From the NCBI GenBank assembly GCA_963667005.1, contig OY762937.1, positions 1,689,279 to 1,753,278 on the forward strand: a DNA stretch of 64,000 bases, written 5' to 3'. Below the pieces are notes generated by a model, which made no database searches, was not told the DNA's origin, and saw only the letters and a list, made by a program, of their open reading frames with translations. Every line of letters starts with the position of its first letter. The first letter of the stretch is position 1. The position numbers and the translations under genes are program-made. Below, one piece after another: positions 7,413 to 35,338 of this stretch. Source of the stretch: Ignavibacteriaceae bacterium. Its GTDB lineage: Bacteria; Bacteroidota; Ignavibacteria; Ignavibacteriales; Ignavibacteriaceae.

Positions 7413-10400
7413 ATGAATTCTATATCTATTAGATATTTTTTAATGTTGTTTTTGGTTCTCCTTATGAGAACGGGGCTTTCTTCTGAAAACATTCAAGGAA
7501 ATAAGAAACTTCCTGCTGACGTTAAGGGTTCACCAACACGAACGTATCTGAATATTAATACTATTTCAACGCAGTTTTCGAACGACGGGACAGCTGATAT
7601 TGATATTTCGGGCAATTCAGGATTTGTTTTTCCAAAAGGAAGTGGAAAAACATGCGTATTTCAATCCGGGCTCATTTGGGGTGCGAAAGTCGAAGGTGAT
7701 AATCAAGTACAAGTTGGTGGTTCGGCTTATGGCACGGGACTGCAGGCGGGCAAAATTGTTTCTGCAGGATTTGCTGAAGATCCTGCTCTCACCAAAAACA
7801 GAATCTATCGTGTTCGTGCCGACGTCTTTCCTGGCGCATCTGTTGATTTGAGTTCCGAAGCTGCCTTAGAAGGAAAAAGCGCTAGTGCATTATATGACCA
7901 ATATATTTTAGATTGGAATGAATGGCCAATTGCAGATGGTGCACCTTATTGGATAGACGTTGATGGGATTATAACCGGTGTTAAAATGGCTGTTATTCCT
8001 GGTGTCAAAGGTGCCAATCAAACAATCTGGTTTGTTGCGAATGATTTAAATGCCAACTTGACGAAGGGGTTATATGGTACTCAACCTTTAGGTATCGAGT
8101 ATCAGGCAACCTATTGGGCTTATAACAAGTCAGGTGCTTTGGGTGATGTAATATTTCGCAAATATAAATTGATAAATAAGTCAAACACACCTTTCACTAA
8201 CATGTACATTTCTATGTGGGCGGATCCCGATGTCGGTACTGCTACTGACGATTTTGTCGGCTGCGATACGTCTTTAAGTCTAGGTTATGCATACAATGCA
8301 AGTAGTGTTGACCTTGTTTATGACCCCCTACCACCACCTGCTGTTGGTTTTCAGCTTCTAGAAGGTCCCATTGTGAACGGAAGCAGTTTAGACACAGCAT
8401 ATTTTGGTGACCGCTTAATCATCGGTAAGAAAAACATTCCCATGACGGCCTTTTATTATTTTACCAATGGTGATGCCTCTGTTACAGATCCTCCAACGGG
8501 TTCTGCGAGTGGGGCGACTCAATTCTATAATTTTTTCCAGGGGAGGGTGGGTTTGACAGGTGAGTTGTTCCAAAATCCACAAAACCAATCAACAACTTTT
8601 GCCCTATCGGGAGATCCGGTAACTAAAACCGGGTGGATTGATGGGCAGTTACGCCCGGAAGGTGATAGGCGATTGGGACTTTCTTGCGGCCCAATTTACA
8701 TGGCAATAGGGGATACTCAGGAAGTTATTTATGCAGAATCCGCTTTTCTTAATAGGGTGGTCACGCCCAATGCAAATTTAAGCAATGTTAATTCCTTAAA
8801 AGATTTGGCAGGCAATCTGATGCATGTTTATAAGAACCGTATGGCGGTTTCAGTACAGGCAGACCAATTAGTAAAGACTAATTCGCCGATGACTCTAAAA
8901 GCAGAAACTCTGTTTTTTGATTTAGGTGAAGTCGTTTCGAATATCTCATGGCATATTATTTCATCGCCGACTGGAAGTAATGCTCTCATAAATTCTGCAT
9001 CACTTGATGCTGATTTTACGCCCGATATTGCCGGTGAATATAAGATAGTGGTTACACTTAAAACAGTAAGCGGCAAAGTTGCGAACGGAATAGTCACTGT
9101 TGAGGCAATAGATTTAAAACCACCCAAAGCTGAGTTTCGCTTTGCATCTTCTGAGATAACCTATGGAGATTCGGTTCTAATCGATGCATCTTCTTCGTCA
9201 GATCCACAAAATCTTTCATTAAATTACAGCTGGAGCACCTCAATTTACGGTGTCTTTAATAAACCTACAGGTAAAACGACCTATTATACTCCATATAATG
9301 CAGGATTGCAAAATTGTATTCTGCATCTCAACAACGGGACATTTTCTGTGGATACCAGCCGACCCCTCATGGTTCATCCGAAATTGTGGAATATTAATGC
9401 CCAATCCTCACTTGCCGTGGATGATCTCGCTGATTCGTCTAACTATCAGTTTATAAAATTCCAGGGTGACACACTGTATTGTACTATTCGTAACCCAACG
9501 GTTAATCAAATAAGAGTCTATTCAGTAAAAAATAATTCATTCGAACTGCTGCACACATTGGATATTCCGGGAATCCAGCAAGTGGTTAAAATGGAGAATA
9601 AATTGCTGTATGGTTTGACAGACGCGACTACCAGTTACACTTTGGGGAATGGTCCACTATCAATTTTTTCAATTGGTGAAGACTGGTCCATCACTCCTTT
9701 GTTGCAAAATTTTACCCCAACAGGAAAAGATATTGTCGGGATTAAATTTATAGATAGTCTTGCATATATTTACGATTATTCTTCGATTAGTTGTGTCAAT
9801 TTCAACAATCCCGCGGCTCCTGTCATCAAATATTCAATTCCATTGTCATATTATAACGCGCGATACTATTGGAAGAATTATCTTACTTGCTTAACCAAAG
9901 ATAATGTTACTGGTACCTGCTCAATTGTGCTTCGTAACTTAACGACCCTTGATAGTGTTACGACATGGCATATACCCAAATTAATCTACAGCTTTTCATT
10001 TGCAGGAAATTATCTACTGACTACATATTATGATACACTTGACGTATATGATGTGAGCAATATAGCAAGCCCGGTGAAAATCAGTTCCGCCTATACTCAA
10101 TCACCTGTCCCCTGGATAAAGTATGATAATTATTATGGCTCTGTTTCAGATATGGGGGCAAATCTAATTGATTTAAGTGGAGAAGCCGGCGATGAAATCT
10201 ATAATATCAGTAACCCATTAACGCCTCAGCTTGTTGCCAGTTATTATGGAGGCGGGCGTAAGCAAATTATTTCGAGCACTGGCGGATTTTTGGCTGTACC
10301 TAAAGACATGCGAATCACGATTACCCCTGGATCTTCGATAGATATAATTCAACTTACAAATCCAAATGATGTTAGTGAGGCAGTAAAAATCAATGCTAAT

Positions 10401-18511: not shown

Positions 18512-19834
18512 ATGAAAATTTTGATTACTTTTCTCTTCGTCATGGTAAGTGCAATTGCATTTGCAGCCCCAAATGATTCAACATTCGCAACAGAAAACTC
18601 TCCGATTGGATTTGCTTCTGTAAATGCCATGGGCGTTAATGGTACAACGGGTGGCGCAGGCGGCGATACGATTTATTTTACCAACGGGACAGACTTGTAC
18701 AATTTTCTGGATGACCGGAAGGATCCGAATTTTAATTTGAATATGCCTCCGAAAGTCTGTGTTATTGTCGGAACTCTGACTTCAACAAAAAAGCAGCTCG
18801 AGATTAAACAGACATATAATCTAACTTTCATCGGCAAAGGAACTGACGCCGCATTTGAAGGAACCGGACTGTTTGTAAAGCAAAGTTACAATATTATTAT
18901 TAGAAATATTCAGTTCAGAAATGCTCCTATTGACGGTGTAGCCATTCAATATCCTGAAGCACATCACGTATGGATTGATCATTGTTCGTTCACCGATTCA
19001 CCTGATATTGATACTGCCGATGCGCGGCATGACGGTGCATTGGATATTACTCACGGCTCGAGTTATGTAACAGTCTCATGGTGCTATTTTACCAATCACA
19101 CGAAAACCTGCTTACTGGGCCATTCTGATAGCAATGACGCTGAAGATCTTGATAAACTAAAAACCACTTATCATCACAACTGGTTTGATAACACCTCACA
19201 ACGCCATCCCAGAGTTCGTTATGCGGATTGCCATGTATACAATAACTACTATACAACAAAGGGCAGGATGTTGTATGGTGTCGCTTCCACTGCAAAAGCA
19301 AAGGTATTGCTTGAAGGGAATTACTTCGATGGCTTGAGTTTTCCTGCATATGTGGGATATGCTGAATCGCCAGCCGGTGATCTGCTTGAAAGAAATAATA
19401 TCTATAATAATAGCGGGATTCCGCAGAGTACCGGTATTGCATTTGAGCCAACTGCGTACTACCAATACAAGCTTACAGATCCGGCAGCCGTGCCATCCGT
19501 AGTTATGAACAATGCCGGAAGCGGCAAGTTGATTTCCGGTGTTGAAAAATCCGCCACTGTCCTAAAACCTGCTTCTTGTTCGCTTGAACAGAATTATCCG
19601 AATCCGTTTAACCCAACCACAAGAATAAACTATACGACTATTAAAACGGGTTTGGTGAAACTATCTATATATAATATGCTCGGGCAGGAGATCGCGGTTT
19701 TAGTCAATAAGATGCAGCCGCAAGGCGAATATTCGGTAGATTTCAATGCTTCAGGACTTCCCAGCGGCATGTATATATATAGATTAGCGATAGGTAATTT
19801 CTTTGAAACACGAAAAATGCTTTTGGTAAAATAA
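18512..19834 (+). CDS. Pectate lyase, family PL1, with T9SS C-terminal domain
   Basis: 440 aa with a signal peptide. Canonical PL1 blocks are present: HHVWIDHCSF, DGALDITHGSSYVTVSWCYF, LLGHSDSN, TYHHNWFDNTSQRHPRVRYADCHVYNNYY. The tail is EQNYPNPFNPTTRINY...GMYIYRL...RKMLLVK. Confidence 0.9.
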   Translation: MKILITFLFVMVSAIAFAAPNDSTFATENSPIGFASVNAMGVNGTTGGAGGDTIYFTNGTDLYNFLDDRKDPNFNLNMPPKVCVIVGTLTSTKKQLEIKQTYNLTFIGKGTDAAFEGTGLFVKQSYNIIIRNIQFRNAPIDGVAIQYPEAHHVWIDHCSFTDSPDIDTADARHDGALDITHGSSYVTVSWCYFTNHTKTCLLGHSDSNDAEDLDKLKTTYHHNWFDNTSQRHPRVRYADCHVYNNYYTTKGRMLYGVASTAKAKVLLEGNYFDGLSFPAYVGYAESPAGDLLERNNIYNNSGIPQSTGIAFEPTAYYQYKLTDPAAVPSVVMNNAGSGKLISGVEKSATVLKPASCSLEQNYPNPFNPTTRINYTTIKTGLVKLSIYNMLGQEIAVLVNKMQPQGEYSVDFNASGLPSGMYIYRLAIGNFFETRKMLLVK

Positions 19835-20212: not shown

Positions 20213-23200
20213 ATGAGAAAATGGTTCACTTTGGTTGCTGTTATTTGTGCTTTTACACTTACAGGAAGTGTTTACGCACAGTTCACAGCTACCTGGCCTC
20301 TTGATGCAAGTGCAGCAAAAGTGCCGACAGTTACTGGTGCACAGTCAACTACAGTTGCCGCACTACAAATGGTTCCCGGAACAAATTTTGCCAGCGGAAC
20401 CCACAATTCAGATGGTTTCCAATGTGCTTACACAACAACCTGGCCTACGACTCCAACCGACGGCCTTAATTTGGACTTTCCACTTTCACCTGATGCAAGT
20501 AGCCACATGACCATTACCGGTTTGACCATGACGGTAAAGATCTCCGGCAGCAGCAACAGCCAAGCTTTGTCGTTGGCTTATCAGGTTGACGGTGCGGGAG
20601 CTTGGACAACAATTGGAAGTGCACAATCCGTTCCGAGCGGTGGAACTTCAAATGTAACGTTCGGATCGCTTTCGCAATATTTTTCTAATGGGCATAGCTA
20701 TGTAGTCCGTTTGTACGTTTATGCAGGTGCCGCATCAATATCTGCAAGCAGAAAAGTATATATAAAGAACGTTGCGTTTACCGGAACAACAACGAATGCC
20801 AATGTTCCTTCAATATTTTTGTCAACTCTTTCTTTGCCGTCATTTGGAACACTAGTTGCCGGTTCAACATCCAGTTCCCAATCTTACACGGTAAGCGGCT
20901 CAAGACTTACAGACAATGTTGTAGTTACTGCACAAACACCGTTTCAGGTAAGTTTGGATAATACAACCTTTACGAGCAGTGTCACTTTAGCCAGAACCGA
21001 TACAACCAACCTTGCATCTACCACAGTATACGTGAGATTCAGCCCGGCAACAGCGGGTGGAAATCTCTCCGGTTCTATTACACATACTAGCGCGGGAGCC
21101 GGTACAAAAACCTTGGCGGTATCCGGTACTGCAATATCAGTTGAGCCGACTTTACAATCATCTCTGACCGTCGGCACCATTACCGGTACATCAGTTCAAC
21201 TTATCATCACTCCCGGTGACGGTAAAAACAGAATAATAACCGCGTGTGAAAACGCTGTTCCGACCTGGACACCGACCGATGGAAAAAGCTTGACCGGAGT
21301 TGATTCAAATTTCTCAGCCGCTACCAACCAAGGTTCGGCAACAAGAGTTGTATTCAACTTACCGGATTCTGTTTCAAGAAGCGTAACGGTTACCGGATTA
21401 CAGGTTGCTACTAAATATAATTTTGCAGTTTTTGAATATAATGGCAATAGCGGAACTGAAAATTATCTGCTTGCTTCACCGGGCTTTGCAGCTGCAACAA
21501 CATTAACCGTTCCGGGATTAAGCGTATCAACCGCTGCACTCTCATTCGGTAATGTTGTAATCGGTTCTGCTCCTGTTGAAAAATCTCTCACCGTTTCAGG
21601 TAAATTCCTTGAACCGGCTGATGGCTCTATCAATCTTACTTCAACTGGCAACTTCCAGATATCCACAACTTCGGGCAGCGGATTCAGCCAGTCATTAAGT
21701 ATTCCATACACCGGGGCAACGCTTACTACCATCCCTGTGTACGTTCAGTTCACGGTTGATTCAATAAAAAATTATTACGGTGCAATAACAGTCAGTGGCG
21801 GAAACGCGACAAATGTTTCTGTCAGCCTGAGTGGTTTTGGACGAGACAGTGCCTCAGTTATAGGAAAAGCAATTTATGTCGCTACCGATGGTAATGATGT
21901 TACCGGAACGGGTTCAATTGACAAACCGTATAAGAGTATTCAGGGTGCAGTTCTGAAACTTCAGGCCGGCATGACGCTAGTTCTTCGTGGAGGAACGTAT
22001 GTTAAAGATTCTATCATTGTCAGAGATAAGACTCTTTCAGACGTAACGATCAGAAGCTATCCTGGCGAAAGAGCCGTTATTGATGCTTCAACGAATGGTA
22101 CGGCAGGTATAGACGTTATAGTCTTTTACGGTAATAACAGCAAATTCTACGGCATTGATGTGAATACAGCACCGCATAACGGTATGTGGTTGCTCGGTAA
22201 CAATAATATTGTCGAATTCTGTCGTTTCTATAATTGCGGTGACTCCGGTTTCAAACTTGGCGCTCACCTTGAATCTATTTTCCCGGCAAATAATCAGATT
22301 ATCAACTGTGATGCATTCTGGAATTACGATACCAGAGGCAATGGCGGCAACGCGGATGGTTTTGCGGCTAAATGGAACATCGGAAGTGGTAACAGATTTG
22401 CGCACTGCCGCTCATGGGAAAACTCTGATGACGGATGGGATTTATGGCAGGCAGATAGTACTGTAGTTATGGATAGTTGCTGGTGCTGGCGTAACGGAAA
22501 TTATCATATTAAAAGTGCAGCAGGAAACGGTAACGGATTTAAGATCGGTGGTAAACCGGTTTGTGTACCTCATATCATGAGAAATTGCATTTCTTTTGAT
22601 AACGTTGGTTCCTCAGGCGGTAAAGGATTCGATCAGAATTCTAACTTAGCCGGACATACTATGTTGAACTGCCTGTCATGGGGCAACTCATATCTGGATT
22701 ATAACTTCTATGTCGCTTCCACAAATGGAACGTTGACATGTAAGAACTCTATTCAATATAAAGGAAAAACTTCCCCATACGTAAAATTTGTTGATGGCGT
22801 AGTTCAAAACAACTCATGGGCTGCTTTGAAATTCCAGTCCGGTTATACTTGGGCAGGTGTTACTGTTACCGATGCTGATTTTGTCAGCGTTGATACTTCG
22901 CTTGCCGGAAAACCGCGCAACGAAGATGGTTCAATACCTGTAACTGATTTATATCGCTTAAAAGCAACAAGTGCACTTATTGACAAAGGACAGGATGTTG
23001 GAATTCCGTTCTATGGCAGCGTTCCTGATATCGGACCGTTCGAATATGGATTAGTAAGTGCTGTAAAAGAGTATGAACCGATTGTCGGACCACGCTCATT
23101 CAAAGTTGAACAAAACTATCCCAACCCGTTCAACCCTTCAACGGTTATCAGCTATCAGATACCGAACAGTAGTTATGTAACTTTGAAAGTTTACAACATA

Positions 23201-23356
23201 CTCGGAAAAGAAGTAGCTACTTTGGTTAACGAAGAGAAAGCTTCCGGAATGTACCATGTAACATTTGATGCTTCGCATTTGCCGAGCGGTCTGTACATTT
23301 ACAGTGTTACAGCAGGTAAGTTCAGCCAGGTCAAAAAAATGATGTTAATCAAGTAA
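20213..23356 (+). CDS. Multidomain PL9-like (Pel9A-type beta-helix) pectate lyase, T9SS cargo [gene A]
   Basis: 1047 aa. Domain order:
- signal peptide
- unassigned ~170-aa N-terminal domain (FTATWPL...RKVYIKNVAFTG)
- Ig-like module (SLPSFGTLVAGSTSSSQSYTVSG...)
- Fn3-like module
- second Ig-like module
- beta-helix with N-cap YVATDGNDVTGTGSIDKPYKSIQGAV...RGGTY and motifs NADGFAAK-x-SDDGWDLW-x-GNGFKIGG
- T9SS tail. Confidence 0.8.
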   Translation: MRKWFTLVAVICAFTLTGSVYAQFTATWPLDASAAKVPTVTGAQSTTVAALQMVPGTNFASGTHNSDGFQCAYTTTWPTTPTDGLNLDFPLSPDASSHMTITGLTMTVKISGSSNSQALSLAYQVDGAGAWTTIGSAQSVPSGGTSNVTFGSLSQYFSNGHSYVVRLYVYAGAASISASRKVYIKNVAFTGTTTNANVPSIFLSTLSLPSFGTLVAGSTSSSQSYTVSGSRLTDNVVVTAQTPFQVSLDNTTFTSSVTLARTDTTNLASTTVYVRFSPATAGGNLSGSITHTSAGAGTKTLAVSGTAISVEPTLQSSLTVGTITGTSVQLIITPGDGKNRIITACENAVPTWTPTDGKSLTGVDSNFSAATNQGSATRVVFNLPDSVSRSVTVTGLQVATKYNFAVFEYNGNSGTENYLLASPGFAAATTLTVPGLSVSTAALSFGNVVIGSAPVEKSLTVSGKFLEPADGSINLTSTGNFQISTTSGSGFSQSLSIPYTGATLTTIPVYVQFTVDSIKNYYGAITVSGGNATNVSVSLSGFGRDSASVIGKAIYVATDGNDVTGTGSIDKPYKSIQGAVLKLQAGMTLVLRGGTYVKDSIIVRDKTLSDVTIRSYPGERAVIDASTNGTAGIDVIVFYGNNSKFYGIDVNTAPHNGMWLLGNNNIVEFCRFYNCGDSGFKLGAHLESIFPANNQIINCDAFWNYDTRGNGGNADGFAAKWNIGSGNRFAHCRSWENSDDGWDLWQADSTVVMDSCWCWRNGNYHIKSAAGNGNGFKIGGKPVCVPHIMRNCISFDNVGSSGGKGFDQNSNLAGHTMLNCLSWGNSYLDYNFYVASTNGTLTCKNSIQYKGKTSPYVKFVDGVVQNNSWAALKFQSGYTWAGVTVTDADFVSVDTSLAGKPRNEDGSIPVTDLYRLKATSALIDKGQDVGIPFYGSVPDIGPFEYGLVSAVKEYEPIVGPRSFKVEQNYPNPFNPSTVISYQIPNSSYVTLKVYNILGKEVATLVNEEKASGMYHVTFDASHLPSGLYIYSVTAGKFSQVKKMMLIK

Positions 23357-23518: not shown

Positions 23519-26500
23519 TTGGAGAAAAACGTGAACAAACTGAAATTATTATGCCTTGTTCTGATTCAGTTAATGCTATTCGGGTCTGCCGCACAGGCTC
23601 AATTAGTTGAGGGATTTGAAACAGGGATGCCTACAAGTGCACCTTCAACATTAACAAGCTATACATTAGGCTCGGGTACCTGGTCAATGTATAAATGCAG
23701 TCAGTCGGGTACTAAACACGCGGGTAGTTACGGATGCGCACTTGCTTCCAGTTCAACCGATGCTTCGTACATAATCTCACCGGCTCTCAATACGGTCGGT
23801 ACGATTACATATTGGGCAAAGTCGGGAAGTTCGTCAATTATTACCGTTTATATATCAATAAACGGGGGAGCCTGGACAACTGCGGGGTCATCTTCAACAA
23901 CATCTTCATTTGCATCAAACACAATCACACTTAATGAAACGAGCAACAGTGTACGGGTGAAATTCCAGAACGGACAAGGTACGTCAATGTATCTGGATGA
24001 TGTTACTATTACTCAGGTTACTGCCCCATATGTACGTATTTCTGCTACCAGCCTTCCATCCTTCGGTATGCTGGTTATGGGAAATTCCTCTTCATCATCC
24101 TCATACACAGTAGATGGAGCCAATTTAACAAGCAATTTATATGTTAATGCCCCAAACGGATTTCAGGTAAGTACCGATAATACTAATTTCTATTCTTCAC
24201 TTTCTTTGGCTCCGGCCAGTGGTGTTGTTGCAAGTACGACTATATACGCCCGCTTCTCACCGATAGCGGCGACAGGCGTAACTGCCGGTGCCATCACGAA
24301 TAAAAGTACAGGCGCTACGACGGTTGAGGTGAATGTTGACGGAAAAGCCATTGGCACAGAACCGGCTAAACAATCATCAATCGCAGTAAGTGAAGTAAGC
24401 GGCAATTCGCTTAAGCTAACACTATCGGGTGGTGATGGCGGTAACAGAATTATCATTGCCCGGGCGGGCAGTGCAGTCAACTGGACACCCGCAGATGGTA
24501 CTGACGGCACGGGTATCAATGCATCATTTGCAGCTGCAACTGATCAAGGCAACGGAAATAAAATAGTTTATTCCGGAACTTCTACGTCTGTAACCGTTAG
24601 TGGATTGACGGTAAACAGTCTTTATCATTTCGCGTCGTATGAGTATAACGGTGATGTGTCAAGTTCAGAGAATTACTTGCTTGCAAATCCGGGTCTGGCT
24701 AACGCCACAACACTTACTGTTCCGGGACTTTCAATTTCACCGGTCAGCATCGGATTCGGCAATGTGCTAAAAGATTCACTGTCGAAAGTTAAGTCATTTA
24801 CCATTTCCGGATTGTATCTAAATCCAGCATCCGGGAACATTAATGTTGCTGCAAACGGCGATTTTGAAGTATCCGCTTCCAGCAATGGAGTTTTTAGTAA
24901 GTCTGTTGATGTAGCCTATACATCTTCTGCTTTAACTGCAACCACTTTATATGCCCGTTTCCGGCCGTCTACCGTTGCCGATAATATTACCGGTACTTTA
25001 GTAGTCACTGGTGGGGGAGCTCCGGCTGATACAATAACCGTATACGGTTCAGGCAAGGATTTCTCGAGCTTTATAACCCGCGGTATTTTTTGCGCACCGG
25101 ACGGTAATGATGTAACTGCTGCAGGCACATACGATGATCCATTTTATTCATTGCACAAAGCAGTTGCAAAAGCTGTCCCGGGTGATACCATCTGGATGCA
25201 TGGCGGAACGTATTATTATAATTCTACGGTTATGCTGACAACAGCAGCCACAGCAGCTAAGCCGATTTCAATCATCGCGTATCCGGATGAGAAGCCGGTG
25301 ATGGATTGGTCAAACTGGAAACCGACAACAGAAGCAGTCCGTGGATCTGCACGTGGTATTAAAGTGGATAAATCGGCAAAATATTGGACGCTGAAAAAAC
25401 TTGAGATCTGTTACGCGCCTGATAACGGAGTAAAATGCGAAGGTTCGCATACGACATTTGACCAGTGCATTTTCCATCATAACGGCGATGGCGGTTTGCA
25501 GATTGGATTGGGCAAAGATTCATTATCGGCTAATCCGGATCCGGAAAATTATGCTTCCTACACACGCGTTCTCAACTGCGACGCTTTCGGTAATGCCGAT
25601 CCCGCAACTGATTATGAAAACGCTGATGGATTCTCCTGCAAACTGTACGCAGGCTATGATAATTATTTCTACGGCTGCCGCGCCTGGGGAAATTGCGATG
25701 ATGGCTGGGATTGTTATCAAACGAATTATCAGATAACAATTGAAAATTGCTGGGCTTTCCATAATGGAGATCCTTCGCAATGGGGATTCACTTCTTTTAA
25801 CGGTGATGGTAATGGTTTTAAACTCGGCGGCAACGGTGCACCGTGTCCTATTACTATTAAGAATTGTGTTGCCTTTAATTGCATCTATGGTGCAGTGTGC
25901 TGCTATAACGATAACAATAACGGTAGCGCTGTGACTGTTCTTAATTGCACAGGCTGGGATGGCGGAAAGATATTCAAGTTTCAATCCGAGCCGCACATCT
26001 TGAAAAACTGTGTGGGTTTTGATCCAAAATCAGGTGCGAAATTTGTAACTGATTTTTCCAGCACAGTAGTGTCTGTTAACAACTCATGGGATTTAGCAAT
26101 TGCCGCAGACTACAGCGACTTTATCAGCACCAGTGAGACTGATGCTCTTGCCCCTCGACAAGCAGACGGAAGTTTGCCCAATAACGGATTCGCAAGATTA
26201 AAACCAGGCAGTGCTCTTATCGACAAAGGTGTTGATGTGGGTATCGCATACTTTGGTTCTGCTCCTGATTTGGGCGCTTATGAATTTAATCCAACTGCGG
26301 TTAAAGATGGTAAAACACTCAAACCCGAGACTGTTTCACTAAGCCAGAATTATCCGAACCCGTTTAATCCGTCAACCGTTATCAAATATCAGGTTCCGGT
26401 TACGGGGAATGTCGTACTTAAAGTATATGACATGCTTGGTAAGGAGGTTGCTACACTTGTAAATGATGTAAAATCTGCGGGTGAGTATGAATACCGATTT

Positions 26501-26590
26501 AATGCGGCAAACCTCGCAAGTGGTTTGTACATCTATACTCTTAAATCAGGCAATACTATTCAAACAAAAAAAATGATGCTTCTTAAGTAA
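23519..26590 (+). CDS. Multidomain PL9-like pectate lyase, T9SS cargo [gene B]
   Basis: The track ORF starts at TTG 23519. The in-frame GTG at 23531, 6 nt after GGAG, is the more likely start. The N-terminal domain differs from gene A and looks choice-of-anchor-J/MAM-like (LVEGFETGMPTS...MYLDDVTITQV). It is followed by Ig-Fn3-Ig modules, a beta-helix (ENADGFSCKLYAG...CDDGWDCYQT...GDGNGFKLGG) and the T9SS tail. Confidence 0.8.
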   Translation: MEKNVNKLKLLCLVLIQLMLFGSAAQAQLVEGFETGMPTSAPSTLTSYTLGSGTWSMYKCSQSGTKHAGSYGCALASSSTDASYIISPALNTVGTITYWAKSGSSSIITVYISINGGAWTTAGSSSTTSSFASNTITLNETSNSVRVKFQNGQGTSMYLDDVTITQVTAPYVRISATSLPSFGMLVMGNSSSSSSYTVDGANLTSNLYVNAPNGFQVSTDNTNFYSSLSLAPASGVVASTTIYARFSPIAATGVTAGAITNKSTGATTVEVNVDGKAIGTEPAKQSSIAVSEVSGNSLKLTLSGGDGGNRIIIARAGSAVNWTPADGTDGTGINASFAAATDQGNGNKIVYSGTSTSVTVSGLTVNSLYHFASYEYNGDVSSSENYLLANPGLANATTLTVPGLSISPVSIGFGNVLKDSLSKVKSFTISGLYLNPASGNINVAANGDFEVSASSNGVFSKSVDVAYTSSALTATTLYARFRPSTVADNITGTLVVTGGGAPADTITVYGSGKDFSSFITRGIFCAPDGNDVTAAGTYDDPFYSLHKAVAKAVPGDTIWMHGGTYYYNSTVMLTTAATAAKPISIIAYPDEKPVMDWSNWKPTTEAVRGSARGIKVDKSAKYWTLKKLEICYAPDNGVKCEGSHTTFDQCIFHHNGDGGLQIGLGKDSLSANPDPENYASYTRVLNCDAFGNADPATDYENADGFSCKLYAGYDNYFYGCRAWGNCDDGWDCYQTNYQITIENCWAFHNGDPSQWGFTSFNGDGNGFKLGGNGAPCPITIKNCVAFNCIYGAVCCYNDNNNGSAVTVLNCTGWDGGKIFKFQSEPHILKNCVGFDPKSGAKFVTDFSSTVVSVNNSWDLAIAADYSDFISTSETDALAPRQADGSLPNNGFARLKPGSALIDKGVDVGIAYFGSAPDLGAYEFNPTAVKDGKTLKPETVSLSQNYPNPFNPSTVIKYQVPVTGNVVLKVYDMLGKEVATLVNDVKSAGEYEYRFNAANLASGLYIYTLKSGNTIQTKKMMLLK

Positions 26591-26611
26591 GCAAAATGAA
26601 ATTATATGCAG

Positions 26612-26646
26612 CCGGAGATCGTTCGTCAAGCGTTCTCCGGTTTGCT
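26612..26646 (+). terminator. Probable terminator hairpin
   Basis: CCGGAGA...TCTCCGG stem followed by TTTGCT. It lies inside the first 21 codons of the track ORF 26606, which argues for the later start. Confidence 0.5.
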
Positions 26647-26668
26647 AAATTCAAGTAAGGAACTCAAG

Positions 26669-29600
26669 ATGAGAAAATTTATACCGGTATTTTGTTTTAT
26701 TAGCCTAACACTCCTTCTTACATCAAATACCTTTGCACAATATACAGCCACATGGGCGCTCACCGCTGATAAATCCGTTGCGGTAACCGGAGCTCAGGCA
26801 TCTAATGTTGTGGCTTCCGCCATGATTCCGGGAACTACATTCAGTTCCGGGGCTCATAGTACTGATGGCTTTGCCTGCACAAGTACGGCAAGCTGGCCAA
26901 CCACTGCAACTGATGGCATGTATCTGGATTTTCCTATTTCACCCGATGCATCGAGTAATATTACTGTTACAGGACTTACATTAACAGCAAAAACTTCCGG
27001 AAGCAGCGGCAGCCAGGTTCTTGCACTCATGTATCAGGTTGACGGTACCGGAAGCTGGAATGTTTTAGGTACAGCTCAAGAAGCTGCAGGAGGCGGAACT
27101 TCAAGTATTAACTTCGGAACCCTCGCCGGTACATTCAACAACGGACATACATATGTTGTTCGTATGTATGTTTACGCAAAGGCATCCGGTACAAGTTCAA
27201 GCAGAAAATTATATATAAGGAATGTTGCATTTACCGGCGCAGCTACCAACGCTAATGTTCCGGTCATTACGGTTTCAGCCGCTTCACTAAGCACGTTCGG
27301 TACTTTGACCTCCGGGACTTCATCAACTGCACAATCATATACGGTGTCGGGCAAACGTCTGACTGCCGATGTGACAGTTACGGCATCAAGTCCTTTTCAG
27401 GTGAGCACGGATAACGTCTCGTTTAATTCAACCGCAACATTAACCCAAAGCGGAGGAACTCTTGCTGAGTCTACCGTATATGTTAAATGTGTTCCTGCAA
27501 CAGCCGACGGAAAGATATCCGGTACGATATCCAATGAAAGCACTGGTGCAGTTAAACAAAGTGTTGGTGTTGACGCAACAGTGATTGCTCAGGAGCCGGC
27601 ACAACAGTCGGTCGTGTCGTTTGGAAGCATTACCGGCAGTTCGATTGTTGTTAAGGCAACAGGCGGAAACGGTGCAAAGAGAATAATTATTGCCAGTGCT
27701 GAGAAAGCCGTCAGCTATTTCCCGGTCGATGCAACTGCTGAAGCGGGTGTAAATAGTAACTTCGCTGCTGCTACCGATAAAGGAAACGGTAATAAAGTTG
27801 TATATGACGGAGCGGATACCGTGGTAACCGTGACGGGACTTATTTCCGGGACGACATACTATTTTGCATCCATTGAATATAATATGGGAACAAATAATTC
27901 TCAGAATTATTTAACAACAAATCCCGGAACCGGAAGCATTGCTACATTAACGACACCGGGACTCTCGGTCAGTTCGGCCACCATCAGTTTTGGCGATGTT
28001 ATCTATAACACCATTTCTTCAGAAAAAACTTTTAGCCTGTCGGGTAAATATTTAACACCTTCAGCCGGGAATATCAATGTTACTGCACCTGCCGGCTTTG
28101 ATATTTCTTTGACAACCGGAAGCGGTTTTGATACATCGGTTACTGTTCCTTACACAGCAGGTACGCTAAGCGCGGTTACCGTTTATGTGCGATTCAAACC
28201 GACCGAAAGCAAAGTGTACAGCGGAGTTATTACTATTTCCGGCGGTGGAGCCGATAATGTAACAGTCTCTTTATCAGGTACAGGTTATGAATATGTACCG
28301 TTTGTACCGGGAACAATTTATTGTTCGCCTACCGGTGATGATGCAACAGGCGATGGCTCGCGTTCAAAACCGTATTTCTCGCTTTCAAAAGCAGTAGCTT
28401 TAGCTGTGCCGGGAGATACAATTTATATGCGCGGCGGGACGTACATGTACGGTGCGACGGTTCATCTTTCGGCCAAAGGAACGGCAGCGAAGAGATTTTT
28501 TATTCTGGCATTCCCCGGAGAAAAACCTGTCTTGAATTGGTCAAACTTTAAACCGGCAAGTGAAGATATTCGTTTCTATGCCCGCGGCATTACGGTTGAT
28601 ACCTCTGCGGCATATTGGTATCTGAAAGGTCTTGATCTCTGCTATTCACCGGATAATGGCGTGAAATGCGAAGGCGAGCATACAACATTTGATCAGTGTG
28701 TCTTTCATCATAACGGAGATGGCGGAATTCAGATCGGTTTGAATAAGGATTTGATTTCAGTCAACGCCAATCCTGAACATTGGGCTGCGTATAATGTTGT
28801 TATTAATTGTGACTCATATATGAATGCCGATCCTGCAACAAATTATGAAAATGCAGATGGATTTGCATGTAAGCTTTATGCCGGTAAAGGAAATTTCTTT
28901 TACGGATGCCGCTCATGGAATAATTGCGATGACGGCTGGGATTGTTATCAGACAGAATATGAAGTGCAGTTTGAAAACTGCTGGTCATGGCATAACGGAG
29001 ATCCGGCGATGTGGGGCTTCAGTTCGTTTAACGGTGATGGAAACGGATTCAAACTTGGTGGTGCGAATACTGCCTGCAAAATGACAGTACGTCGTTGTGT
29101 CGCTCTTAATTGCATGTGGGGCGCAACAGGCGGATTTGCCTATAATGATAATACCGACGCGATCACTTTGCTGAACTGCACTGCAATTCATTGCGGCAGA
29201 AGCTACAACATGCAGCAATCAGCGGTAAATATTATTACCAACTGTGCCGACTGGGGAGCTAATCGTCCGGCGCCGAAAGATATTTCATCTTCATCCATTT
29301 GCACGAATTGTACATGGACGCTTGGTATTACCGTAGACACTACAATGTTTACAACTGTAGCCGAATCTGCAGCCGCAGAGCCCCGTCTTGCTGACGGTTC
29401 ATTGCCTACCAAATTCGCACGCCTTGTTTCCGGAAGTGCATTGTTGGATAAGGGCAAAGATATCGGATTTGCATTTACCGGTTCTGCTCCGGATTTAGGT
29501 GCTTATGAGCAAGGTCAAGCTGTACCGACAGTTCCGGATTCAATCTTCCACATTCCGAATTCTACTACCACCAAAGTTGAAGTTGAAGAAAATCTTTCAC

Positions 29601-29869
29601 CAAAGGCAATGACTATTGTCCGCAATTATCCGAACCCTTTCAACCCGGCGACAAAAATTTCATTTACCGTTGCTGAAAGAGGTAGAACAAGTTTGAAGAT
29701 TTTTGATATGCTCGGTCGCGAAGTAACTGAATTATATAACGATATAGCAGATCCTGCACAAAATTACACGATTGATTTTAATGCGGCACATCTTTCCAGC
29801 GGTATTTATTTCAGTGTCGTGCAGACTGCTAATCAGCGTGCAGTATCAAAAATGATTCTGCTTAAGTAA
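26669..29869 (+). CDS. Multidomain PL9-like pectate lyase, T9SS cargo [gene C]
   Basis: The start is set at ATG 26669 (MRKFIPVFCFISLTLLLTSNTFAQ is a good signal peptide). The track start at 26606 overlaps the upstream terminator. Architecture matches gene A (N-domain QYTATWALTADKS...). The catalytic half is very similar to gene E. Confidence 0.8.
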   Translation: MRKFIPVFCFISLTLLLTSNTFAQYTATWALTADKSVAVTGAQASNVVASAMIPGTTFSSGAHSTDGFACTSTASWPTTATDGMYLDFPISPDASSNITVTGLTLTAKTSGSSGSQVLALMYQVDGTGSWNVLGTAQEAAGGGTSSINFGTLAGTFNNGHTYVVRMYVYAKASGTSSSRKLYIRNVAFTGAATNANVPVITVSAASLSTFGTLTSGTSSTAQSYTVSGKRLTADVTVTASSPFQVSTDNVSFNSTATLTQSGGTLAESTVYVKCVPATADGKISGTISNESTGAVKQSVGVDATVIAQEPAQQSVVSFGSITGSSIVVKATGGNGAKRIIIASAEKAVSYFPVDATAEAGVNSNFAAATDKGNGNKVVYDGADTVVTVTGLISGTTYYFASIEYNMGTNNSQNYLTTNPGTGSIATLTTPGLSVSSATISFGDVIYNTISSEKTFSLSGKYLTPSAGNINVTAPAGFDISLTTGSGFDTSVTVPYTAGTLSAVTVYVRFKPTESKVYSGVITISGGGADNVTVSLSGTGYEYVPFVPGTIYCSPTGDDATGDGSRSKPYFSLSKAVALAVPGDTIYMRGGTYMYGATVHLSAKGTAAKRFFILAFPGEKPVLNWSNFKPASEDIRFYARGITVDTSAAYWYLKGLDLCYSPDNGVKCEGEHTTFDQCVFHHNGDGGIQIGLNKDLISVNANPEHWAAYNVVINCDSYMNADPATNYENADGFACKLYAGKGNFFYGCRSWNNCDDGWDCYQTEYEVQFENCWSWHNGDPAMWGFSSFNGDGNGFKLGGANTACKMTVRRCVALNCMWGATGGFAYNDNTDAITLLNCTAIHCGRSYNMQQSAVNIITNCADWGANRPAPKDISSSSICTNCTWTLGITVDTTMFTTVAESAAAEPRLADGSLPTKFARLVSGSALLDKGKDIGFAFTGSAPDLGAYEQGQAVPTVPDSIFHIPNSTTTKVEVEENLSPKAMTIVRNYPNPFNPATKISFTVAERGRTSLKIFDMLGREVTELYNDIADPAQNYTIDFNAAHLSSGIYFSVVQTANQRAVSKMILLK

Positions 29870-29961: not shown

Positions 29962-32900
29962 ATGAAACGTTTTTTATCAATGACCTTTTTTATATGCGTT
30001 GTATTGTTTGCGACAAATACATTTGCACAATACACGGCAACATGGGCATTAACTACAGATAAATCCGTAGCGGTGACCGGAGCACAAGCTGCAAGTGTTG
30101 TGGCCTCCGCTATGGTTCCCGGTAGTACCTTCAGTACCGGGACTCACAATACAGACGGCTTTGCCTGCTCATACACTACCAATTGGCCGACAGCTGCCAC
30201 AGAAGGCATGCATCTTGATTTTCCATTATCACCCGATCCCGCGAGCAACCTGACTATTACAGGATTAACAATGCCTGTTAAAATTTCAGGAAGCAGTGGG
30301 AATCAGATGTTCTCACTTGCATATCAGGTAGATGGTGCCGGAGCATGGATTGCATTGGGAACACCCCAATCAGCAACCAGCGGTGGTAGTTCTACGGTGA
30401 ATTTCGGGACATTGAGTGCTTCGTTTGAAAACGGACACACCTACGTTATCCGTATGTATGTTTATGCTGCCGCAACGGGTACTTCCTCAAGCAGAAAAGC
30501 GTATGTTAAAAACGTTGCCTTCAGCGGTACTGTTACAACAGCCAACACTCCGGCAGTCGCGGTTTCAGCAAGTTCGCTAAGTAGTTTTGGCTCAGTCATA
30601 GCAGGTACACCCTCAACTGTGCAAAGCTACACAGTGTCCGGACTCCGGTTAACTGATAATGTCATTGTAACTCCTCCTTCTCCATTCAAAGTTAGCACAG
30701 ATAATGCAACCTTCGTCGACTCACTCGTGTTGGCTCCAGCCAGCGGTGTGGTTGCCGCAACAACAGTCTATGTAAAATTAATTTCAGCTGATGCTGTTGG
30801 TACTGTTGCCGGTTCGATTTCGAACCGGACTGCCGGTGCAATTGCGAAAACTGTTTCCGTTAACGGCACTGTCCTCGCATCCGAACCAGCAACGCAATCT
30901 GTCATATCATTCGGAGAAACAACGGGCAAATCCATTGTCGTAAATATGTCAGGCGGAAACGGAGCGAAGAGGGTGCTTGTTGCTTGTGCAGACAATGCAG
31001 TAAGCTATGTTCCGACTGACGCTGCTACTGAAACAGCTAACAGTAATTATACGGCAGCTACTGATAAAGGAAATGGCAATAAAGTTGTATTTGCAGGAAG
31101 TGATGCCTCGGTGACTGTTACAGGTTTAATATCGGGAAAAACATATTACTTTAGCTGTTTTGAATACAACGATGGAACAAACAATTCACAGAACTATTTG
31201 ACAACTGCTCCCGGGACGGGAAGCAAAATGACCTTGCAGGTTCCCGTTTTATCATCCAATACAGCTTTGCTTGTCTTCGGAAATATTTTATTTAATACTA
31301 TCTCTGCAGAAAAATCTTTCGCTCTTTCAGGAACGTACCTTTCGCCTGCAGAGGGCTCTGTTAAAATTAGTGCACCGGCTGGATTTGAAATTTCAACCAC
31401 CAGCGGTAGTGGTTATGACTCAGTAGCAACGGTTACATATACCGGTAGTACAATTAGTGCTGTCCCGGTGTATGTACGATTTAAACCGACTGAAGCAATC
31501 GCCTATAATGGCAATATAACCCAATCCGGGGGAGGAGCCGATCCATTAACCGTGGCTGTTTCAGGTAAAGGTGTTACGGAATTACCATTCCAGGCTCACT
31601 ACGATTATATTGTTGCAGCCGATGGTTCAGGGGACTTTACGACAATTCAGGCTGCGGTAGATGCAGTACCTGCAAATAACACCAAGTGGGTTGCGATATT
31701 CGTTAAAAAAGGATATTACAATGCACATGTTGCTATCAGTAAAGCCTATGTCGCAATCGTCGGCGAAAATCGCGATAGCACAAGAATAGAAGTTGATTTC
31801 CCGCGTTCAGCATGGTACAGTCAATACGGAACAAATACAGGTTGCGGTGTTGTTAATGTTGCCGCAAACGATTCAATGGTTGTCCTCGCAAACATGACTA
31901 TTATCAATACCAATGCATCTTCTTCGCAAGAATACACTGAAGTATTCCGCAGCGAACCCGGCAGTACAAAATTATGGTTTGTAAACTGTAACATGTATGC
32001 TAATTGGAGTGATACATTTTCTCCATGGGGCAAAGCAAACGGAAGATATTATGTTGCCGATTGTGATTTCCGCGGCGGCATTGACGCCGTTTGTCCACGC
32101 GGCTGGGCATACATGATCAACTGCGGTTTCACCGAATCAAGAGATAGCAGTCCTATTTGGCACGAAGGTGTCGCCGACCTCGGACAAAAATTTGTTATTC
32201 AAAACGGTTCAGTACACAGTACGAAAAACAAATCAATCAAATTGCAAAATGCGCAAGGCTCCTACTCAATGTTCTTTTATCTGGATACGGAAATGTCAGA
32301 TAGTGTTGGCAGCCTTGGTGTAAGTTCACCAACATATTTCTGGAATTGCCACCGTGTTGGTACAACAGGAGACGCTTCATGGTTTTCAACAAATACTTTA
32401 TCAAATTATACTGGATCGCCAACGCATACGGATATTAATGCAGCATGGGTGTTTGGCGGCGCATGGGATCCCGAAAATGAAATGCCTCCGGTATTACAAT
32501 ATGCTTCTTTGCCTCAGCCATTCTTTAAACAATATGATGTTACGGCTACTCCGGAACTCAAATGGATCGGCGCTTGCGGCGCAACCTCCTATAACGTCTA
32601 TTTCGGACTTTCATCCGATCCTGCGTTTGTTGGAAATCAATCAGGAACCAGTTTTTCGCCTGGCACACTCAAATCCGGCAGAACATATTATTGGCGTGTT
32701 GATGCTGTCAATAGCGATGGTGTTATCAAAGGAAAAGTATGGCAATTTACCGTTAACGGCGTTGCCGATGTAAAAGAAGAATCGGGAATTCCCACTAAGT
32801 ATTCATTAAAACAGAATTATCCAAATCCGTTTAATCCGTCAACCTCTATCAAATATCAGGTTCCGGCAAGCGGACAGGTTGAATTAAAAGTTTATGACGT

Positions 32901-33057
32901 ACTTGGTAAAGAAGTCGCAACCTTAGTTAATGCAGTTAGAACTGCCGGAACTTACGAATGTACATTCAACGCTTCAAATCTTCCGAGCGGATTGTATATC
33001 TACTCGCTCAAGGCAGGAGGCAGCACATTAACAAAGAAAATGCTTCTCCTTAAGTAA
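29962..33057 (+). CDS. Multidomain divergent CE8 pectinesterase, T9SS cargo [gene D]
   Basis: 1031 aa. The N-terminal half (unassigned domain, then Ig-Fn3-Ig) is collinear with gene C. A pectinesterase-type domain follows, opening with YIVAADGSGDFTTIQAAVDAVP. A Fn3-like module (YNVYFGLSSDP...YYWRVDAVN) and the T9SS tail complete it. Confidence 0.8.
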   Translation: MKRFLSMTFFICVVLFATNTFAQYTATWALTTDKSVAVTGAQAASVVASAMVPGSTFSTGTHNTDGFACSYTTNWPTAATEGMHLDFPLSPDPASNLTITGLTMPVKISGSSGNQMFSLAYQVDGAGAWIALGTPQSATSGGSSTVNFGTLSASFENGHTYVIRMYVYAAATGTSSSRKAYVKNVAFSGTVTTANTPAVAVSASSLSSFGSVIAGTPSTVQSYTVSGLRLTDNVIVTPPSPFKVSTDNATFVDSLVLAPASGVVAATTVYVKLISADAVGTVAGSISNRTAGAIAKTVSVNGTVLASEPATQSVISFGETTGKSIVVNMSGGNGAKRVLVACADNAVSYVPTDAATETANSNYTAATDKGNGNKVVFAGSDASVTVTGLISGKTYYFSCFEYNDGTNNSQNYLTTAPGTGSKMTLQVPVLSSNTALLVFGNILFNTISAEKSFALSGTYLSPAEGSVKISAPAGFEISTTSGSGYDSVATVTYTGSTISAVPVYVRFKPTEAIAYNGNITQSGGGADPLTVAVSGKGVTELPFQAHYDYIVAADGSGDFTTIQAAVDAVPANNTKWVAIFVKKGYYNAHVAISKAYVAIVGENRDSTRIEVDFPRSAWYSQYGTNTGCGVVNVAANDSMVVLANMTIINTNASSSQEYTEVFRSEPGSTKLWFVNCNMYANWSDTFSPWGKANGRYYVADCDFRGGIDAVCPRGWAYMINCGFTESRDSSPIWHEGVADLGQKFVIQNGSVHSTKNKSIKLQNAQGSYSMFFYLDTEMSDSVGSLGVSSPTYFWNCHRVGTTGDASWFSTNTLSNYTGSPTHTDINAAWVFGGAWDPENEMPPVLQYASLPQPFFKQYDVTATPELKWIGACGATSYNVYFGLSSDPAFVGNQSGTSFSPGTLKSGRTYYWRVDAVNSDGVIKGKVWQFTVNGVADVKEESGIPTKYSLKQNYPNPFNPSTSIKYQVPASGQVELKVYDVLGKEVATLVNAVRTAGTYECTFNASNLPSGLYIYSLKAGGSTLTKKMLLLK

Positions 33058-33100: not shown

Positions 33101-35338
33101 ATGAGAAAATATATATTAATAATGGCTATTGCCTTGCTTTGCACACAAGCATGGGCTGAACGCCTTGTTTTTCAGGCCGAGAACGGAAAGCGTTCTTCCG
33201 GGACAGTAGATGTGGAATATGCCGGCTACACCGGAACTGGATACTTGAATACCGCTAATGCAACTGGTGAATATGTTGAATTTGAAGTTGGCGTTGCAAA
33301 TGAAGCAGATGATACACTGATATTTGTTTACGCACATAATAAGACAGATAACCGAACTGCATCCGTTACGGTAAATGGAGCCGTTGTTGTTAGTTCATTG
33401 GGTTTCCCCTCGACTGGTGCATGGACTACATGGTTACCTGTAACTGCTATTGTTCATTTAAAAGCCGGAGCAAACACAATTCGATTGACATCTCTTACTT
33501 CAGGTGGATTGGCGAATCTTGACAGGATGGAAGTCGGCGCGGCGGATGGAAGTTTTCAGTTTAAACTTACTACTTCGGTTAGTGGGCACGGAAATATCAC
33601 GGTAGATCCGGTAGGGCCTTACTATTCATTTGGCACATCGGTTAAACTTACTGCAGTACCGGATGCAAATACTACATTTACCGGATGGTCTGGAGATACT
33701 ACATCAACCGATAATCCGGTAACAATTACTATGTCAAAAGATAAGTCTCTGACAGCAATATTCTTCTCTGTTGTCGGCGGAACGAAGTATTGTTCTCCTG
33801 ACGGTGATGATAATAGCGGAGACGGCTCTTTTGCTAAACCGTATTATTCATTATCCAAAGCAGTAGAACTTGTCAGTCCGGGTGATACAATTTTTATGCG
33901 CGGCGGGACATATTATTATACTGCAACGGTACATCTCGCCGCAAAAGGAACACCCACGCAACGCTTTATTTTAATGGCATATCAGAGTGAGAAACCGGTT
34001 TTAAACTACTCAAAGTGGACTCCGGCAAATGAAACTGAGCGCGGTGCTGCAAGAGCTATGAAGGTAGATACTACAGCCGCATATTGGTATGTTAAGGGAT
34101 TGGAAATATGCTACGCGCCTGATAATGGCGTTAAATGCGAGGGCGACCATACAACATTCGACCAGTGCATATTTCATCATAACGGTGATGGCGGAATCCA
34201 GATCGGCTTGAATAAAGATTCGTTCTCTACAAATCCGAATCCCGATCATTGGGCTGCATACAATACTGTTCTTAACTGTGATTCCTATATGAACGCGGAT
34301 CCGGCTACAGATTATGAAAATGCTGATGGATTTGCATGCAAACTTTATGCAGGCAAGGGAAATTTCTTCTATGGCTGCCGTTCCTGGAATAATTGCGATG
34401 ATGGATGGGATTGTTATCAGACTGAATATGAAGTTCAATTTGAAAACTGCTGGGCATGGCATAACGGTGATCCGGCGTTGTGGGGATTCAGCTCGTTTAA
34501 TGGTGATGGAAATGGATTTAAACTCGGCGGTAATGGCACGTATTCGCCAATGACGCTTCGTCGCTGTGTTGCGTTGAATTGCAACTGGGGTGCTTTAGGT
34601 GGATTCGCTTACAATGACAACATAGCACCTATCACTTTGCTAAACTGCACTGCAATTCATTGCGGCAGAAGTTATAACATGCAGCAGACAGCCGCTAATA
34701 TTATGACCAACTGTGCTGACTGGGGTGCCGACCGGCCTGCTCCTAAAGATATTTCTTCAAGCTCTATTTGTACTAACTGTACATGGACGCTGGGAATAAC
34801 GGTTGATACGACAATGTTTGTGACAGTTGCCGAATCAGCAGCGATTGAGTCGCGTCAGGCTGATGGCGCACTACCGACAAGATTTGCAAAATTGGTTTCC
34901 GGAAGCAAACTAATTGATAAAGGAACTTCTGTTGGAATTCCATTTTTAGGTGCTGCTCCTGACCTTGGTGCATATGAATTCGGTCAGGCAGTTCCAACGG
35001 TGCCGGATTCGATTTTCCATATTCCTAATTCGGGTGTTTCTGGAATTGAGATTCAACAAAATCTAACTCCGAATACATTAACGGTAGTGCGGAACTATCC
35101 GAACCCGTTTAATCCAGCAACAAACATTACTTTTAGTGTTGCACAAAAAGGACACGCGACATTAAAGATCTATGACATGGTTGGCCGTGAAGTAGCAGAA
35201 TTATTCAATAATGAAGCTAATCCCAACAGCAAATACACGGTAAATTTTAACGCAGGCAATCTATCGAGTGGTATCTATTTCAGTGTGGTACACTGCGGAA
35301 ACCAGCATGCGGTTAGCAAAATGATATTAATGAAGTAA
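33101..35338 (+). CDS. CBM6/35-like + PL9-like pectate lyase, T9SS cargo [gene E]
   Basis: 745 aa. Domain order:
- signal peptide
- CBM6/35-like module (LVFQAENGKRSSG...TGAWTTW...NLDRMEV)
- InlB-B-repeat-like module (LTAVPDANTTFTGWSGD)
- beta-helix near-identical in long stretches to gene C
- T9SS tail. Confidence 0.8.
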   Translation: MRKYILIMAIALLCTQAWAERLVFQAENGKRSSGTVDVEYAGYTGTGYLNTANATGEYVEFEVGVANEADDTLIFVYAHNKTDNRTASVTVNGAVVVSSLGFPSTGAWTTWLPVTAIVHLKAGANTIRLTSLTSGGLANLDRMEVGAADGSFQFKLTTSVSGHGNITVDPVGPYYSFGTSVKLTAVPDANTTFTGWSGDTTSTDNPVTITMSKDKSLTAIFFSVVGGTKYCSPDGDDNSGDGSFAKPYYSLSKAVELVSPGDTIFMRGGTYYYTATVHLAAKGTPTQRFILMAYQSEKPVLNYSKWTPANETERGAARAMKVDTTAAYWYVKGLEICYAPDNGVKCEGDHTTFDQCIFHHNGDGGIQIGLNKDSFSTNPNPDHWAAYNTVLNCDSYMNADPATDYENADGFACKLYAGKGNFFYGCRSWNNCDDGWDCYQTEYEVQFENCWAWHNGDPALWGFSSFNGDGNGFKLGGNGTYSPMTLRRCVALNCNWGALGGFAYNDNIAPITLLNCTAIHCGRSYNMQQTAANIMTNCADWGADRPAPKDISSSSICTNCTWTLGITVDTTMFVTVAESAAIESRQADGALPTRFAKLVSGSKLIDKGTSVGIPFLGAAPDLGAYEFGQAVPTVPDSIFHIPNSGVSGIEIQQNLTPNTLTVVRNYPNPFNPATNITFSVAQKGHATLKIYDMVGREVAELFNNEANPNSKYTVNFNAGNLSSGIYFSVVHCGNQHAVSKMILMK

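Follow-up and report, generated by a model that had tools for sequence, protein, structure and literature searches.

The window analysed here, a stretch of 64,000 nucleotides from an Ignavibacteriaceae bacterium (GenBank assembly GCA_963667005.1, contig OY762937.1, positions 1,689,279 to 1,753,278), carries an array of secreted pectin-breakdown enzymes. Three of them, the polysaccharide lyase family 9 (PL9) enzymes A and C and enzyme D of carbohydrate esterase family 8 (CE8), begin with a shared N-terminal domain of about 175 amino acids (aa), named domain X here. Gene B carries a different head on an A-type stalk, gene E has a head of CBM6/35 type (CBM, carbohydrate-binding module), and gene J holds a diverged internal copy of X (Table 1). 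The array enzymes are arranged head-to-tail on the plus strand, and all except the glycoside hydrolase GH88 end with the Por_Secre_tail/TIGR04183 sorting domain of the T9SS (type IX secretion system). Pfam and NCBIfam scans match PF18962 (Por_Secre_tail) in genes A to E, and additionally TIGR04183 in A to D; with a signal peptide and this C-terminal domain (CTD), the five products are predicted T9SS type A cargo.

Table 1. Coordinates of the features discussed (window numbering unless another contig is named).
Feature	Coordinates	Strand	Remarks
Pectin-breakdown array	18512-42051	+	about 11 genes: PL1, four long PL9/CE8, CBM6/35-PL9, short PL9, GH88, unknowns
PL1 lyase	18512-19834	+	
Gene A	20213-23356	+	PL9/Pel9A-like beta-helix plus T9SS CTD
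Gene A signal peptide	20213-20278	+	aa 1-22, MRKWFTLVAVICAFTLTGSVYA followed by Q; basic n-region, hydrophobic core, cleavage site between VYA and Q
Domain X, gene A copy	20279-20800	+	aa 23-196; predicted beta-jelly roll
Gene A stalk	20801-21850	+	aa 197-546; Ig-like/Fn3/Ig-like; weak Pfam: fn3 aa 351-413, Cep192_D4 aa 434-543
Gene A PL9-type pectate lyase beta-helix	21851-23044	+	aa 547-944; NCBIfam PelN 5.4e-37, Pfam Pel9A-like_beta_helix 1.3e-13
Gene A T9SS type A sorting domain	23117-23344	+	aa 969-1044; Por_Secre_tail 1.9e-11, TIGR04183 3.6e-12
Gene B	23519-26590	+	PL9/Pel9A-like beta-helix enzyme
Gene B head	23600-24019	+	about 140 aa, other than X; unannotated; on A-type stalk
Gene C	26606-29869	+	PL9; longest open reading frame, probable real start 26666
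Domain X, gene C copy	26738-27253	+	in PL9 enzyme; 61% identity to A copy; 239 bits vs family profile
Gene D	29962-33057	+	CE8 pectinesterase; Pfam Pectinesterase 1.3e-16, aa 549-728
Domain X, gene D copy	30028-30543	+	in CE8 pectinesterase; 63% identity to A copy; 255 bits vs family profile
Gene E	33101-35338	+	CBM6/35 + InlB-type repeat + PL9
Gene E CBM6/35 head	33167-33535	+	aa 23-145; Pfam CBM_6 7.5e-10, CBM_35 4.8e-6
Gene J	59209 to window end 64000	+	continues beyond; >1597 aa
Diverged internal X copy, gene J	60334-60924	+	aa 376-572; family profile built without J
P0031 TcA-like gene	L027 472-16677		Logan contig SRR28211907; followed by TcB gene (SpvB, TcdB_mid domains)

A preliminary description of this DNA, made from the sequence alone, had reported a collinear domain directly after the signal peptide of A, C and D, fused to two catalytic chemistries. 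Both points hold: its coordinates are right within one codon, and Pfam and NCBIfam identify PL9 in A and C and CE8 in D. The C and D copies are collinear with the A copy and 61-63% identical to it, far beyond chance, and all three score 239-265 bits over the full length of the family profile. Motifs common to the family are TATW, WPT, DFPxSP, YQxDGxG and GHTYxxRxYxY. Domain X begins straight after an AxA-Gln signal-peptide site in each of the three genes (signal peptides were read by eye from the sequence), and similar cleavage sites directly precede it in other family members. The longest open reading frame of gene C begins 20 codons 5' of the likely start at 26666 (the position of MRKFIPVF); the later start is preferred because the ortholog P0006, which starts with MRKLIPVF, and the signal peptide both begin there. 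The first mature residue is Gln in genes A to D (20276-20281, 23597-23602, 26735-26740 and 30025-30030 for the Ala-Gln pairs) and in most X family members. The Bacteroidetes "Q-rule", which denotes an N-terminal pyroglutamate, was described as not extending to the whole FCB (Fibrobacteres, Chlorobi and Bacteroidetes) group (PMC5837995). Its Ala-Gln pattern appears here in Ignavibacteriaceae genes, in contrast to that limit.

The fourth, distant copy that had been placed at about 60319-60910 in gene J is real, as judged by profile scores, and its limits shift slightly (Table 1). A family profile lacking J scores 32.9 bits in the full J protein (HMM positions 3-177; HMM, hidden Markov model), and the excised segment reaches 48.0 bits against a maximum of 10.8 among 2000 composition-matched shuffles. 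The shuffle test rules out a chance or low-complexity origin of the similarity. BLASTP against the A copy gave no support (E=0.14) and a three-sequence HMM missed the segment, so that the broader profile is needed. In the J protein the diverged X follows an Ig-like domain and precedes Fn3-like repeats; next come about 700 aa that Pfam does not match, a second Ig-like domain and, truncated where the window stops, a CE8 pectinesterase. The N-terminus of J shows, by eye, an SGNH/GDSL-type esterase motif set and has no Pfam hit. In a neighbor-joining (NJ) tree the J copy clusters with P0045 in a divergent subfamily, and P0045 appears to share with J the stretch directly after X. P0051 starts with J-like sequence, by eye.

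Beyond the window, domain X is a small, real family by sequence. An exhaustive phmmer search with the gene A copy against 1.84 billion representative proteins returned 48 proteins at E<=0.001, and 35 reached <=1e-10 (range 1.7e-93 to 1e-10). Three of the 48 appear to be artefacts: P0044, P0046 and P0049, repeat proteins matched over short local stretches and absent from the local jackhmmer results. A word-indexed protein search was nearly empty (two hits for X alone, one for the B head, four for the family alignment), probably because the sequences are rich in Ser, Thr and Gly. Its yield for X alone was no more than fragments, and the family came to light only in the exhaustive search. A genome scan with a nine-sequence alignment located 26 genomic loci, all in metagenome-assembled genomes (MAGs) of Ignavibacteriaceae, Chitinophagaceae, Ferruginibacter and unclassified Bacteroidota. 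One of them, L001 (Ignavibacteriaceae MAG OY759785.1), is 93% identical over X and keeps the gene order LeuRS-PL1-A-B, so L001 and the window stem from closely related organisms. Several X genes can occur in one genome: L011 and L025 lie on the Chitinophagaceae contig JAIYAN010000016.1, and L002 and L004 in the Ignavibacteriaceae genome OY761615.1. Paralogous expansion of X is thus not confined to this window.

The proteins that carry X are mostly not pectinases. Among the 25 full-length members over which architectures were counted, 15 have IgGFc_binding, most of them together with PKD and/or a T9SS CTD; PKD repeats occur in 10-11, the CHU_C type B T9SS domain in 10, a type A tail in six and dockerin in two, and a pectinesterase is found in one member outside the window. 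At locus L003 a PorP/SprF gene comes next after an X-IgGFc_binding-CHU_C gene; PorP/SprF proteins are the usual partners of surface-anchored type B cargo (SprB/SprF-type systems). Five members of 368-403 aa consist only of a signal peptide, X, about 100 aa and a T9SS tail. Since nothing but signal peptide, linker and tail stands beside it, X is the sole candidate functional part of these X-plus-CTD proteins. In P0031, a TcA-like toxin of 3632 aa, X occupies aa 1333-1511, with VRP1 on one side and the ABC_toxin_N and neuraminidase-like domains on the other. In nearly all members the signal peptide leads straight into X; gene J, P0031 and P0032 hold it internally. The pectin focus implied in the preliminary description is therefore not borne out: the usual hosts are Chitinophagaceae/Bacteroidota giant surface proteins with IgGFc_binding, PKD and CHU_C, and the remaining kinds of host include small X-plus-CTD proteins and a TcA-like toxin. 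A pectin-only module is ruled out by these family-wide fusion partners.

Within Ignavibacteriaceae the pattern is uniform. Every X protein seen there is a pectin enzyme: A, C, D, J, a CE8 enzyme in L002, a PL9 enzyme in L004 and a CE8 enzyme in P0004. In the NJ tree, which carries no support values, the pectinase copies form one shallow Ignavibacteriaceae clade nested in Chitinophagaceae diversity. This topology is suggestive of a lineage-specific link between X and pectin. The A copy is 59% identical to that of the Bacteroidota adhesin-like protein P0007, nearly as close as its own paralogs. An Ig-like domain adjoins X across lineages: it occurs in the gene A stalk, in the equivalents in B, C, D and J, and in Chitinophagaceae members. 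Its pattern is L.FG...S..Y.LSG..L....I.V.AP.GF.VS...F..S..L.Y....L....IYV.F.P, and its Pfam matches are weak only (Cep192_D4, E 1e-3). On this sequence pattern, X and the adjoining Ig-like domain may travel as a cassette.

Searches for a named family agree with the preliminary statement that X could be assigned to none. Neither Pfam nor NCBIfam gave an at-threshold match over X, in full-length scans, in domain-only scans or in scans of all 39 aligned members singly, and the family profile found nothing but noise among PDB sequences. The best Pfam match of the gene A copy is CBM_4_9 (PF02018), at 16.8 bits and E 0.0094 against a gathering cut-off of 25.9, thus below threshold. Nine of the 39 members have CBM_4_9 matches, all sub-threshold (best E 0.0026). 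This is the sole recurrent signal; NCBIfam gives noise. Membership in CBM6/35 is ruled out, as X has no Pfam match to CBM_6 or CBM_35 and hhalign against the CBM6/35 head of gene E returns a probability of 0.1%. Choice-of-anchor J and MAM models in NCBIfam and Pfam gave no match at E<=1, either for X or for the B head. In the literature, no described CBM on PL9 or on Ignavibacteria pectinases was found.

The AlphaFold2 model of X, built from the 39-sequence alignment, is all-beta with 11 strands (pLDDT 94.9, pTM 0.91). A Foldseek comparison, one of the checks proposed in the preliminary description, yielded CBM-type jelly rolls as best PDB matches and no close match: MiXBM 7ehg, CBM22 4xup/4xuo, CBM36 1ux7, CBM16, CBM6 2cdp and CBM4, followed by phage tail-fibre tips, IFT25 and meprin MAM. 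E values range from 2e-4 to 4e-3, with template-modelling scores (TM) on the query of 0.3-0.44, rising to 0.57 at most on smaller targets; none of the PDB matches is a close solved relative. BFVD matches score similarly; most are uncharacterised proteins of phages and giant viruses, and several bear collagen-like or C1q-like names. On the model, X is a predicted beta-jelly roll of the carbohydrate-binding, galactose-binding-like class, and it appears to carry an N-terminal elaboration of about 45-60 residues (strands 2-6, 17-19, 26-28 and 46-50). The earlier word "new" applies to the sequence family and not to the fold; X looks like a remote relative of the CBM4/9/22 type, in line with the sub-threshold CBM_4_9 matches. 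Residues conserved across the family (domain numbering; add 22 for gene A numbering) are W6, G46, W55-P56, D66-F-P-x-S-P, Y101-Q-x-D-G-x-G, G138-H-T-Y, R144, Y146, Y148, N164 and G169. They include an aromatic and polar set: W55, D66, Y101, Q102, H139, R144, Y146, Y148 and N164.

Several known systems resemble X, each in part. CBM4, CBM9 and CBM22 (CBM_4_9, galactose-binding-like clan) resemble its predicted jelly roll, with matches to 4xup/4xuo (CBM22), 3k4z, 3p6b, 1k42 and 1ulo (CBM4) and CBM16, and like X they are appended to polysaccharide-degrading enzymes. The Foldseek probability of CBM4/9/22 structures is 0.97-1.0, at TM 0.31-0.41 and E 4e-4 to 4e-3, a likeness of fold class only; X further differs in its sub-threshold bit score, its apparent N-terminal elaboration and its mostly non-CAZyme hosts (CAZyme, carbohydrate-active enzyme). 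MiXBM (7EHG), a module of the xanthan lyase of Microbacterium sp. XT11 (PMC10881899), tops the structural matches with E 2.2e-4 and a TM of 0.42 on the query, or 0.51 on the target, but at 16% identity and a root-mean-square deviation of 5 A, with no sequence-level relation detected. CBM6, CBM35 and CBM36 are alike in position, CBM6/35 being the head of the paralogous PL9 enzyme E, and in fold (1ux7 and 2cdp, TM on target 0.55-0.56), whereas profile similarity between X and the E head is absent. Gingipain K2/K3 "cleaved adhesin", MAM-like and choice-of-anchor J domains are non-catalytic beta-sandwich heads on T9SS cargo, as X is proposed to be, although X matches none of them in Pfam or NCBIfam and its own relation to the B head is only suggestive. 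The shells of TcA toxins bear variable receptor domains that bind glycans (PMC7264150). The copy of X inside P0031, beside a TcB gene, resembles these by position only.

The heads of the array enzymes sit on a common support. The Ig-like/Fn3/Ig-like stalk is shared by genes A, B, C and D at 40-53% identity, against 61-63% for X between paralogs, and X is the best-conserved segment of the N-terminal half. In the ortholog pair of A and P0003 the values are 85% for X and 73% for the stalk; in the pairs C/P0006 and D/P0005, X and stalk are about equally conserved. The catalytic domain is the most conserved part in the A, C and D pairs. The stalk of gene B is 42-52% identical to that of A, and its head is not alignable to X. 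Profile comparison gives an hhalign probability of 18% (E 1.3e-3), and the head scores 11.2 bits against the X profile, compared with a maximum of 7.5 in 2000 shuffles. These scores are suggestive of a distant relationship between the B head and X. The model of the B head, from a two-sequence alignment, is of low confidence (pLDDT 61), so its Foldseek matches are only indicative: CBM4, CBM29, the gingipain K2/K3 adhesin and a "carbohydrate binding domain of a putative pectate lyase". The alternative heads had been described as CBM6/35-like in E, which Pfam bears out, and as choice-of-anchor-J/MAM-like in B, a label that finds no match in NCBIfam or Pfam and stays a guess. Heads are swapped on a conserved stalk, X in A, C and D and a different one in B.

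Housekeeping genes for LeuRS, SerRS, Pta and ProRS flank the array, and no SusC/SusD pair was seen among the open reading frames scanned in the window. Further T9SS-tailed proteins of 1081, 548 and 513 aa are encoded at 7413-10658, 36883-38529 and 40510-42051; their main bodies have no above-threshold Pfam match, the last showing a weak GH99 match only.

Taken together, we hold it somewhat more likely than not that X is a non-catalytic beta-jelly-roll head, probably for glycans, that sits at the distal N-terminus of T9SS cargo and that the Ignavibacteriaceae pectinases acquired together with a stalk. Most likely it binds glycans in the manner of a lectin or CBM. Most of its relatives tip giant surface proteins without a recognised enzyme domain, so its binding is probably general and not pectin-specific. 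The earlier proposal of a carbohydrate-binding or surface-targeting module survives in this form, shorn of its pectin focus: the same slot is filled by other jelly-roll heads (CBM6/35 in E and, at low confidence, a CBM4-like one in B), the predicted fold is of CBM type, and X lies above the stalk in conservation. What the data establish is the family, where it occurs, what it is fused to, its predicted fold and its relative conservation; we infer that X proteins bind a ligand, that this ligand is a glycan and that the proteins are tethered to the surface. Sec export and signal-peptide cleavage would make X the mature N-terminus, and the T9SS would secrete the protein via its C-terminal sorting domain. 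If the C-terminal tether persists, X would be the part most distant from the cell, held out on the Ig/Fn3 stalk. In Ignavibacteriaceae, the head-plus-stalk cassette has been joined to PL9 lyases and CE8 esterases, and X would anchor enzyme or cell on plant-wall or other polysaccharide, raising the local substrate concentration. In Chitinophagaceae, it tips giant proteins that are adhesin-like.

Several points weigh against a glycan-binding head. The structural matches are fold-level only (TM on query <=0.44, E about 1e-4), and jelly rolls also have protein-protein and purely structural roles. X is unnamed after searches of Pfam, NCBIfam and PDB, which could overlook a CBM family that has neither a Pfam model nor a solved structure. 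No substrate is known for the proteins that partner X outside Ignavibacteriaceae.

One alternative makes X a pectin-specific CBM, for homogalacturonan or rhamnogalacturonan, in the Ignavibacteriaceae clade at least. Pectinases make up the array at this locus, and all Ignavibacteriaceae X proteins seen are pectin enzymes; the near-invariant R144 would suit an anionic ligand, and MiXBM, the top structural match, comes from a xanthan lyase, likewise acting on an anionic polysaccharide. This specificity is nevertheless unlikely, as a CAZyme domain is missing from most members of the family, the pectinase copies amount to a single shallow clade within a wider diversity, and the same conserved residues recur family-wide, marking no pectin-specific site. 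A protein-protein or purely structural cap with no glycan ligand, serving in oligomerisation, docking to a surface protein or protection of the N-terminus, is rather improbable. It would fit the position of X, which in nearly every member heads the mature protein, the presence of IFT25, C1q-like tips and MAM among the structural matches, and the want of an at-threshold CBM family match. Against a cap stand the internal copies in gene J, P0031 and P0032, the exchange of X with the bona fide CBM6/35 head of paralog E, and the X-plus-CTD proteins, which would then be left without evident function. That X is a small enzyme of jelly-roll fold, such as a lyase or esterase on a uronic-acid polymer, which would make the pectinases bifunctional and the X-plus-CTD proteins stand-alone surface enzymes, is very improbable despite the conserved Gln102, His139, Arg144, Tyr146 and Tyr148, a set reminiscent of the catalytic Arg/Gln/His/Tyr of PL7-type jelly-roll lyases, and despite the lack of any other functional domain in the X-plus-CTD proteins: at about 170 aa, X falls short of the size of known jelly-roll lyases and hydrolases, the first 50 Foldseek matches contain none of these enzymes and are CBMs, and X also sits at adhesin tips and in a TcA shell.

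With a glycan-binding head as the preferred reading, X is below threshold or unmatched for every named family tested, yet its fold and functional class are familiar ones. The family is rare, with clean limits and a confident model, and its spread across contexts is a mild surprise. Secreted bacterial enzymes commonly bear unnamed CBM-like heads, and X overturns no current understanding. That X founds a new CAZy CBM family is a real possibility that falls a little short of even; it would then be a glycan-recognition head common to pectinases of Ignavibacteriaceae, surface proteins of Chitinophagaceae and a Tc toxin, possibly exchanged between lineages. If X binds glycan, it would be a new carbohydrate-binding family with a confident fold model, three in-genome paralogs and a diverged copy. 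X, the B head and CBM6/35 on related PL9 enzymes form a natural domain-swap series for how heads tune pectin degradation, and X would have a modest practical use as a candidate polysaccharide probe or fusion tag. Glycan binding by X, if true, would also bring together two subjects that are as a rule treated separately, CAZyme targeting modules and the distal heads of giant Chitinophagaceae T9SS surface proteins.

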